From the IMG/VR virus record IMGVR_UViG_2698536505_000018: 4,907 bases of DNA. The stretch is one strand, 5' to 3'. This DNA comes from a virus. Its lineage: Duplodnaviria; Heunggongvirae; Uroviricota; Caudoviricetes. Within the stretch, counting starts at the first letter, position 1, and each line of letters starts with the position of its first letter. Position numbers: made by a program. Shown piece after piece: positions 3,001-4,907 of the stretch.

Positions 3001-4907
3001 AAGCGCACCACAGGCTACCAGCAGGACAATAATCACCACACACAGAACACGGTTCATATCCCCCTCACCCCACCAGCCCTGACAAAGTTAAGACGCGCCA
3101 GGCAGTGGAAAAGCAAATAGCAACCAGCATATTAGTGAAAATGAAATGCCGACGATTACACAGAGGATCTTCGCCAGCGTTATGAGCTTGTCTGACATGC
3201 TTAATCCTCTTCACGATTTCAACGCAATGACCAGTTTTGCCAGCCCATACAGCATCGGAGACACAGCAATACCGACCGCCACCCACTTAATAGCAAAAGC
3301 CAGCGCTCTGCTGACGTCATCAGTTACAGGCGCTTTCAGTTCAAGGCCGTCTTTCATAGTCAATCTCAACAGAATTCGTTTATACTTTCCTATGTTCTCC
3401 TTTGCCTTACTCAAGGTCAGAAACACAAAACCCCGTTTGCGGCCAACAAACGAGGTTTTACTTTTATTCACTTAGCTTTTGCCAGTTCGCAGGATTTCGT
3501 GTTACCCACCCGCGTTGACCAACGTCATTTTCAGCAAAATATTCTACTTGCCTGTCAATTCCCCAGCACGCCAGTGCACTTTCCTGGTCTCGCCGGGATA
3601 CCTGACCGTAGCAATTATTTGAGCGGATACGGCAGTCTCTGCCACCGTCCTTAATCCACCAGCGAACGCTTCGCAGGCACCTTTTAGATCACCTGCATTA
3701 ATCCGTCTGTAAAACGTAGACGGGAAACACTTACCGGGGCCAATGTTATAAGGACAAAATGACGCGATACCCGCCTTCTGGGGTTCGGTCAGCGGTACTT
3801 TAATATTGCGCTCCCCCCACTCCAGCGCCTTATCACGTTCAATGGCGTTAACCTGGTCGCATTTTTCCTTCGACAACTTCATGCCCGGGACGACAGGTTT
3901 ACCATCCACTCGGGTGGTACCGCGGCAGATGGTCCAGATCCCCGCACCATCACGGTATGCCGTGGTGTGGTTACCTTCTTTTTCGTCAAGAAACTGGTCG
4001 AGGATTTCAGGCGCAGACGCCCCTGCACCAATCAGCGCCAGAACGGCAGCCGACAGGCCGTATCTGATTTTTGCGTTCATGGATATTTATCAGGGTTTAT
4101 CGATTTCAAATCCCTGGATATGTTAAGTCTTCAGGCCAGCGGTGGAGTCTTCAGAGAACCAGTAATTATTCCCGGTAGTTTTCCTCTGTAGGTTATCAAC
4201 ACATCCTGCGCCTCTAAAATTACGGGGCGCTTTTCCGGCAACGGACCATCCCCTTCACATAACCCGGCAGCAACATCCATGAAAAACTGCTTCGCCTGCT
4301 TTTTCGCCTCAGCTTCGTAAAACTCCAGCGTGGCACCTTCAGTACGGTCAAGACTAATCGCCACATCTGGCAACAACAGTGACGGATACCCACCAATTTC
4401 CAGTGCCACAGTAACAGTAACAGTAACAGTAACAGTAACAGTAATCTTATCCGGGTAATTATTTATCCCTTTAACACCCAGTTCGTATTTTTTCTTCATC
4501 GCTTTACTCCCCCCGCGCCGCCTTACGACGGTCCTCTCTGATTTTGAAATACAGGTTAGTCAGATACGTCAGCAGGCCAAACAGCAGACTCCCCAGCACA
4601 CCGATTGCCACCCACTGGGACGGAGAGACTTTGTCCAGCAGCTGCAGTAACCAGTATCCCGTCCCCACTGCTGACGTGGTGTATGACACACCTGTTGTGA
4701 TTTTTTCCATCTGATGTATGTCTCCGTCACCGCCGACAGAAAATGAAAGTAAAGAAAAACAAATAAATATCCTCCGGCATAGCCGGAGGTTTTTCAAATG
4801 CGCCTATAAGGCTCTCTTACCAGCCGCGCCCTAACAGGCGCACACGATCTGACATTTGCATCCAACTTCGTTACTTACGGCCCGTAAACGGGCTGCCCGG
4901 ATAGGGA

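Follow-up and report, generated by a model that had tools for sequence, protein, structure and literature searches.

Gene content and context of the module

The stretch of DNA analysed here (the window) is 4,907 nt long. An exact-protein look-up identified it as the reverse complement of the whole 4,907-bp contig CYAI01000084.1 of assembly GCA_001277655.1 (locus L010). The annotated genes follow one another on the minus strand in the order holin, ydfR/DUF1327, endolysin, two small ORFs, Rz with Rz1, a PerC-family regulator, an nleH remnant and espS/ospB. The principal features are:

4504-4710, minus strand: class II holin of 68 aa, S21-type and pinholin-like (PF04971, Phage_holin_2_1, on the L010 gene call)
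4131-4499, minus strand: ydfR/DUF1327, between holin and endolysin (PF07041, 149.7 bits)
3544-4080, minus strand: endolysin ORF as now read, 178 aa, with ATG at 4078-4080 and TAG at 3544-3546 (ORF list)
2590-3057, minus strand: Rz i-spanin of 155 aa (PF03245, profile positions 1-125 of 126)
2652-2837, minus strand: Rz1 o-spanin ORF embedded in Rz (relatives have an annotated Rz1 family lipoprotein at the corresponding position)
1812-2126, minus strand: PerC-family regulator
155-1030, minus strand: espS/ospB effector gene

The endolysin ORF is therefore accompanied by the partners expected of a SAR endolysin in a lysis cassette, with the holin at 4504-4710 and Rz/Rz1 at 2590-3057. The holin is the upstream partner of the endolysin; the annotation of relatives at this position reads 'class II holin family protein'. 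In phage lysis, the weakly hydrophobic N-terminal segment of the endolysin first keeps it inactive in the inner membrane; once activated, the endolysin cuts the murein and Rz/Rz1 then disrupt the outer membrane. Damage is evident elsewhere in the module: only part of nleH remains, and an ORF of 43 codons is disrupted by a +2 insertion at window positions 3131-3132. The ydfR gene contains an expanded hexanucleotide repeat and is 24 nt longer than in the relatives. The holin, Rz and Rz1 all still look intact, and decay of the cassette is therefore not general.

The window is itself a 4.9-kb contig, and what lies around the remnant was read from complete relatives and from longer contigs of nearly the same sequence. 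A longer contig (L007) is 99.96% identical over the whole window. In this contig an IS200/IS605-type (Y1) transposase gene abuts the holin side of the module and an IS3 transposase lies on the espS side, and both ends of the window fall inside these two IS elements. The complete relatives carry the same 4.8-kb module between insertion sequences, ISEc20 plus IS3 at one end and IS3 at the other. Its location is either a plasmid of 82-101 kb, among which the 89-kb CP146553 is typed as IncFIA/IncFIC, or, in ML35, a chromosomal site adjoining traM/traJ. The records of these relatives show no Q antiterminator gene, late promoter region, terminase, or head or tail genes beside the module, and the article on EspS (PMC11507257) contains nothing on genomic context. 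The endolysin gene thus sits in an IS-bounded, 4.8-kb prophage remnant, joined to PerC, an nleH remnant and espS, and devoid of morphogenesis and late-regulatory genes.

The endolysin gene and its conserved parts

ORF 3544-4080 is a GH24 SAR endolysin gene of the R21/RrrD/RrrQ family, as judged by sequence, fold, catalytic triad, SAR segment and pairing with a holin, and in this respect the first-pass annotation, which had likened it to phage 21 R and Qin rrrQ, is supported. The exact 178-aa protein is deposited at NCBI as 'prophage lysozyme (endolysin)'. The parts of the gene needed for the following discussion are:

3667-4080, minus strand: in-frame N-terminal part, residues 1-138, with the SAR segment, E35/D44/T50 and the central helices
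3815, minus strand: substitution of G for T, which turns Val89 into Gly (EWVE to EWGE) and is seen only in the frameshift haplotype
3666-3667, minus strand: site of a 1-nt deletion, the missing A of GCG-A-TTC (Ala138-Ile139 in intact RrrQ), from the alignment of rrrQ and three sister alleles
3547-3666, minus strand: out-of-frame tail of 40 codons, FAGGLRTVAETAVSAQIIATVRYPGETRKVHWRAGELTGK, in place of the canonical 39 C-terminal residues
3548-3550, minus strand: former endolysin stop codon, TAA in intact rrrQ and now CAA (alignment columns 581-586)
3464-3666, minus strand: ancestral frame, open but no longer translated, comprising IRWW...ACWGIDR and a 28-codon read-through to TAA at 3464-3466

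The window ORF matches PF00959 (Phage_lysozyme) with 71.7 bits against a cut-off of 22.3, over residues 33-140 and profile positions 2-105 of 125, whereas an intact homolog scores 90 bits and extends over profile positions 2-125. The GH24 triad, Glu-8x-Asp-5x-Thr, is present as E35, D44 and T50, residues that are invariant in 34 homologs, and its spacing equals that of the described triad E15/D24/T30 (PMC8879335). The SAR segment GLSAAVLALIGAGASAP, at about residues 8-24, is a weakly hydrophobic N-terminal segment in which 11 of 17 residues are Gly, Ala or Ser. It lies directly ahead of the catalytic Glu and, in alignment with full-length R21 (3HDE), matches the SAR segment of that protein, with residue 11 of the query opposite residue 7 of the chain. 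The intact homolog aligns by sequence to both full-length R21 (3HDE) and DLP12 RrrD (4ZPU) over residues 11-174. The earlier description of an intact E-D-T triad followed by a scrambled C-terminal part is therefore accurate.

A single-base deletion after codon 138

Frame 0 of the ORF follows the SAR endolysins as far as GACEA (residue 138) and then departs from the canonical frame, as had been noticed at first pass and as translation of the ORF and of the separate frames confirms. From this point it reads FAGGLRTV...ELTGK and stops, and the canonical continuation IRWWIKDGGRDCRIRSNNCYGQVSRRDQESALACWGIDR can be read in the second frame of a three-frame translation of the window. The ORF ends in ...HWRAGELTGK, which has no counterpart in the intact proteins; these end in ...ACWGIDR.

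The cause is evident from alignment with plasmid NZ_CP027545, the ML35 chromosome and an intact, PGAP-accepted rrrQ (WP_000992175.1, 177 aa). The sequence GCG-A-TTC of intact rrrQ and of the closest relatives is GCG-TTC in the window, and this is the sole length difference within the coding region. The 1-nt loss predicted near 3665-3666 is thus real and lies within a base of the prediction, the A being absent between 3667 and 3666. A megablast search found matches in 4,288 of 5,426 complete E. coli genomes. The six best records share 99.5-99.7% identity with the query and exceed it in length by one base, and the deletion is absent from all six of these closest complete-genome or plasmid copies. 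Copies of the rrrQ type have ~96.6% identity and are two bases longer, the other extra base of rrrQ lying downstream of the gene at window position 3532.

The first-pass annotation had also posited a compensating 1-nt gain in the G run at 3561-3564, with recovery of the original frame just before the stop. Alignment with four references revealed no second indel. From window position 3666 down to 3552, the G run included, the sequence is base-for-base that of intact rrrQ (columns 466-580) and of the sister alleles. Intact homologs therefore share nucleotides 3561-3666 with the window but read them in a different frame, and the proposed second indel falls away. Translation of the window ORF ends at TAG 3544-3546 in the shifted frame, and the original frame is never regained. 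The near-normal length of the product (178 versus 177 aa) is coincidental, because a lineage-specific C-to-T change at 3546 creates the out-of-frame TAG. The gene was also considered as a compensated (double) frameshift and was rejected from that class: it has a first indel and lacks a second of opposite sign.

Loss of the original stop codon and other substitutions

The deletion is not the only lesion at the 3′ end of the gene. The sequence AGA TAA GCA of rrrQ is AGG CAA GTA in the window (3546-3551), and the canonical frame consequently runs beyond the stop of the window ORF as ACWGIDRQVEYF... Restoring the missing A in silico yields a read-through product of 205 aa rather than a protein of 177 aa, the same length as in the ML35 and NZ_CP027545 sister alleles. 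Loss of the stop codon is common to the six closest records, all of which are un-frameshifted. Among five sister copies that were fetched, the four with RefSeq annotation are called pseudo by PGAP ('incomplete; missing C-terminus'), and the fifth, GenBank record CP146553, is annotated as a 191-aa lysozyme.

Two amino acid substitutions strike conserved positions. V89 and R132 are each conserved in at least 90% of homologs, and they are replaced in the window by V89G and R132L. Compared by eye with intact rrrQ, the gene has four nonsynonymous and four probably synonymous differences, numbers too small for a dN/dS estimate or any measure of relaxed selection.

Conservation of the shifted frame

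If the tail were a protein segment in its own right, its frame should be conserved. The gene was extracted from 75 genome loci; 66 distinct full-length copies were kept, of which 61 are ungapped in the C-terminal region. Across these 61 homologs, which come from about 60 genomes, the two frames of the C-terminal region compare as follows:

Mean pairwise amino acid identity: canonical frame 86%; window's frame 52%
Homologs with a stop codon in the region: canonical frame 0 of 61; window's frame 57 of 61

Nucleotide differences at canonical codon positions 1, 2 and 3 amount to 0.134, 0.089 and 0.439, respectively. Substitutions are therefore dominated by canonical third positions, which points to selection on the canonical frame only. 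The frame beginning FAGGLRTV... is conserved neither equally nor better, and the frameshift reading stands. An overlapping gene in the alternative frame was rejected on the same observations: the stops in 57 of 61 homologs, the 52% identity and the distribution of substitutions over canonical third positions.

Protein searches gave a similar picture. The 40-residue tail alone, searched against 5.8 billion clusters, retrieved two fragments of 59-60 aa and nothing else; the window's own cluster is represented by a 135-aa partial protein and so was not retrieved. When the complete ORF served as query, matches to intact relatives extended over no more than about 75-78% of its length. The search also returned proteins of 161-205 aa, mostly singletons, which switch into this alternative frame at various points and are independent frameshift chimeras. 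Many E. coli alleles have ~100 open codons in the frame of the tail. The shifted-frame tail is noise and not a conserved protein segment.

Predicted structural consequences

Alignment of 34 intact homologs identifies 17 invariant residues among the last 39 positions of the canonical protein (I139, W142, D145, G146, D149, C150, C157, Y158, G159, Q160, R163, R164, E167, S168, L170, C172 and W173), none of which is translated in the window. AlphaFold2 models of the intact and window proteins were built with the same set of 34 homologs. The intact protein is modeled with a mean pLDDT of 81 and has helices at residues 132-144 and 158-171. The mean pLDDT of the window protein is 69.6, with values of 84-95 over residues 11-100 and below 50 over residues 143-178, and its model has no equivalent of the C-terminal helix 158-171. 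Besides this helix, the deletion costs the protein the final part of helix 132-144, within which the frameshift site lies. In Foldseek comparisons with R21 (3hde_A), 171 columns are aligned for the intact model versus 134 for the window model. According to these predictions, the window ORF would not form the complete two-lobed GH24 fold with its C-terminal helices.

Distribution of the frameshifted allele

The first-pass annotation allowed that the frameshift might reflect sequencing errors, a possibility that does not survive examination of other assemblies. Precisely the same 178-aa protein is encoded by 12 contigs. Ten of these were examined, each from a different assembly; the assemblies span several accession series and include one ENA metagenome assembly. 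The protein is deposited under several accessions, e.g. CTT28493.1 and a protein of E. coli 2-427-07_S4_C1. V89G and the deletion occur together in all 10 carrier loci, as they must in identical proteins; the deletion is always linked to V89G and therefore belongs to a haplotype. Two of the carriers have additional silent SNPs, one in L007 and three in L014. The carriers were fetched by exact protein identity, a method that forces silent-only variation, and this pattern is thus uninformative on selection.

Over 4.77 kb, the window differs privately from four complete relatives by ~10 SNPs, one 24-nt hexanucleotide-repeat expansion and one 1-nt deletion. With a single private 1-nt indel over this distance, the contig is evidently not riddled with indels. 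The same allele is present in at least 10 separate assemblies, two of them with extra silent SNPs, and the deletion is an inherited haplotype, not a sequencing error.

Interpretation

We interpret the feature as a pseudogene, a decaying copy of an R21/RrrQ-type SAR endolysin in the lysis cassette of a prophage remnant, and assign this reading a probability of roughly 0.9. The damage to the gene falls into two sets. The first comprises R132L and the loss of the stop codon (TAA to CAA), common to the sister alleles, and the second V89G and the missing A after codon 138, which only the frameshift haplotype has. The stop loss and R132L are shared with un-frameshifted sisters and are therefore older than V89G and the deletion. 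The deletion exchanges the last 39 residues for 40 unrelated ones, with the reading frame ending at the out-of-frame TAG one codon later than normal. The late-gene control region of the remnant would have been lost to IS insertion. The changes in the gene probably accumulated under relaxed selection, in a remnant with no virion genes to release.

The 178-aa product, if made at all, would probably be misfolded or inactive. Some residual activity may nevertheless be retained, judging from the sequence of residues 1-138, which keep the SAR segment, the triad and most helices. The lysis competence of 'this prophage' had been called questionable at first pass. That statement holds insofar as the scrambled C-terminus makes muralytic competence doubtful, but what had been called a prophage is an IS-bounded remnant.

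Several other explanations of the locus must be weighed against a pseudogene. A sequencing or assembly error behind the missing A, with the true gene in frame, could be argued from two facts: the window comes from a draft assembly, as one of its short contigs, and closely related complete records have private single-base indels of their own elsewhere in the module (four in L001), so that errors or mutations of this type are frequent in such data. This is hardly credible given the identical protein on 12 contigs (10 assemblies examined), the linked V89G, the lack of any homopolymer at the GCG/TTC site and the absence of other private 1-nt indels in 4.77 kb; moreover, the repaired gene would still be without its stop codon. 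A compensated double frameshift that scrambles ~35 internal codons and perhaps keeps function would account for an ORF of 178 aa where the intact protein has almost the same length (177 aa), and for a canonical peptide that is readable in another frame. We give it practically no chance: positions 3552-3666 match intact rrrQ and the sister alleles base for base, the ORF ends in RAGELTGK, which is read in the shifted frame, and the canonical frame stays open beyond the stop of the ORF. Programmed ribosomal frameshifting or transcriptional slippage that restores the canonical frame has next to no probability either. The canonical frame is still open downstream, but nothing else speaks for recoding: the site, GAAGCG followed by TTCGCTGG, offers no slippery heptamer or homopolymer run, each of the 61 homologs and each sister allele encodes the protein in one frame, and the canonical frame has lost its original stop codon.

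Two further explanations invoke selection. Selection might maintain the frameshifted protein, with its new C-terminus, as a membrane-tethered muramidase that still works or has taken on a specialised role, for instance as a lysin that was detoxified or domesticated. The SAR segment and E35/D44/T50 are intact, the ORF is not shortened and the allele persists in many isolates; domestication of GH24 lysins is known, and the SpmX muramidase domain is among the fold hits. Such a role is nonetheless very unlikely, as the tail is unconserved outside near-identical copies and predicted to be disordered, 17 invariant residues are lost, V89G and R132L fall at nearly invariant positions and the upstream region has been replaced by an IS. 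The silent-only variation among carriers lends no support to it, being an artefact of the exact-protein look-up. Alternatively, knockout of R may itself have been selected: it would have detoxified a prophage fragment that carries effectors (espS and a perC homolog), attaching-effacing E. coli could then keep the fragment stably on their IncF virulence plasmids, and this advantage would account for the spread of the haplotype. We consider this unlikely: the pinholin, which is lethal alone, is still intact and the un-frameshifted sister modules persist equally well.

A decaying pseudogene is thus the reading we retain, and it is nothing new in kind. The protein has already been deposited and named, and disrupted lysis genes are routine in E. 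coli prophage remnants. Its biological weight is small, frameshifted lysis genes being commonplace in defective E. coli prophages, and the lesson is mainly one of annotation. The alternative frame is open, and the broken gene therefore gives an ORF of near-normal length that gene callers label as a lysozyme, with no pseudogene flag; lysozyme chimeras of this origin, of 161-205 aa, are numerous in the protein database. The impression of a 'regained' frame, gathered from reading a sequence alone, can likewise mislead, since a single indel and a fortuitous out-of-frame stop suffice to produce it.

Comparison with known systems

The closest intact counterparts are RrrQ of Qin and the R protein of the Stx-phage 933W type (177 aa, WP_000992175.1), with 96.6% nucleotide identity over 651 nt. 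RrrQ-type loci share with the window the order holin, ydfR, R, small ORFs, Rz/Rz1 and PerC. Over residues 1-138 the window protein differs from RrrQ only at A21/T21, T55/A55, G89/V89 and L132/R132 (window/RrrQ). Unlike RrrQ, the window lacks the A after codon 138, has lost the TAA stop and leaves the canonical 39 C-terminal residues untranslated.

The sister alleles are closer still. They are found on the IncF plasmids NZ_CP027545, NZ_CP027549 and CP146553 and in the chromosomes of E. coli ML35 and B19374, with 99.5-99.7% identity over the gene and 99.0-99.2% over the module. Like the window, they have lost the stop codon, carry R132L and lie in an IS-bounded remnant with espS, an nleH remnant and perC. 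In contrast to the window, they have retained both the A and V89, and their products are therefore read-through proteins of 191 or 205 aa.

The T4 lysozyme double frameshifts of Streisinger and Terzaghi in 1966, the model implicit in the first-pass annotation, likewise concern a phage GH24 lysozyme whose frame is shifted by an indel; a second indel a few codons away is said to restore both frame and function. The window differs from these in that there is no second indel and the frame remains shifted through all of the last 40 codons.

The prototype SAR endolysins, R21 (PDB 3HDE and 3HDF) and RrrD (4ZPU), belong to the same family (E about 1e-17; Foldseek probability 1.00) and share with the window an N-terminal SAR segment, the E35/D44/T50 numbering and pairing with a class II holin. 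Our statements on the R21 structure rest on the PDB matches and on a review (PMC6116005). In an intact phage, a SAR endolysin is exported by Sec and remains anchored, in inactive form, in the energised membrane, from which depolarisation by an S21-type pinholin releases and activates it (PMC6116005). The window protein is only about 26-32% identical to R21 and RrrD, and, in contrast to these prototypes, its model lacks the C-terminal helices.

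Insertion sequences and gene content of the module

Both ends of the contig lie within insertion-sequence genes, and the short-read assembly broke there for this reason. The espS-side end falls inside an IS3 element and the holin-side end inside an IS200/IS605 Y1 transposase gene. The sister modules carry ISEc20 on the holin side instead of IS200/IS605, and it follows that IS elements bounded the module on more than one occasion. The features concerned, together with an effector gene remnant, are as follows.

Window 1–~66 and 4871–4907: contig ends inside insertion-sequence genes (109–567 and 5372–6585 in L007, a longer and nearly identical contig)
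Window ~1440–1800, minus strand: remnant of nleH, a T3SS effector kinase gene, from the annotation of relatives

The nleH remnant is positioned between espS and the PerC-family gene; the annotation of the relatives describes it as frameshifted, interrupted by an internal stop and lacking its N-terminus. All morphogenesis genes are absent between the i-spanin gene Rz and the effector genes. The nleH remnant thus shows that an effector locus has become joined to the lysis cassette of the phage.

The intergenic stretch that precedes the PerC-family gene also contains an imperfect, A-rich tandem repeat with a 25-nt unit (window 2181–2235; 2.2 copies, 74% matches), and indels of 1–2 nt are found among the relatives here (window 2235 and 2248).

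Sequence variation within the lysis region

The ydfR gene (4131–4499, minus strand) contains a perfect hexanucleotide tandem repeat, (ACAGTA) × 6.2, at window 4408–4444, which is translated into consecutive Val-Thr dipeptides. The repeat is longer in the window by 24 nt (four units) than in four complete relatives, and the length of the ydfR product is 114, 122 or 124 aa across near-identical loci; the repeat is therefore an in-frame VNTR. The exact sequence of the 122-aa YdfR protein is absent from the protein collection.

In the SAR endolysin ORF (3544–4080, minus strand), the stop codon has changed from TAA to CAA, with two adjoining substitutions inside the same 6 nt (window 3546–3551). 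Loss of the stop is common to the un-frameshifted sister alleles of the plasmids, ML35 and B19374, where it yields read-through proteins of 191 or 205 aa; in the examined RefSeq records, PGAP labels these as pseudogenes. The 43-codon hypothetical ORF WP_001280929.1, located between the endolysin gene and Rz (region 3065–3200, minus strand), is broken by a 2-nt insertion (AT; window 3131–3132) relative to an intact prophage copy, L003, and is annotated as 'frameshifted' in relatives.

Database entries related to the endolysin

Enterobacterial prophage lysozyme copies with 74–91% identity to the E. coli protein occur in genome records labeled as a Bacillota MAG, a Veillonella parvula MAG, Vagococcus sp., a Geobacteraceae MAG and Xanthomonas pisi (loci L021, L024, L044, L063 and L092). 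Contamination or mis-binning is the likeliest source of these copies.

Among the proteins returned by the search with the whole endolysin ORF, P0033 and P0034 contain internal duplications, and many 'lysozyme' entries of 161–205 aa are independent frameshift chimeras of the endolysin gene family (P0035–P0050, P0056, P0079, P0086, P0089, P0100, P0116 and P0123). The chimeras, mostly singletons, switch to the same alternative frame, each at different codons, and some originate from multi-megabase contigs. They could be real pseudogenes or else products of assembly indel errors.
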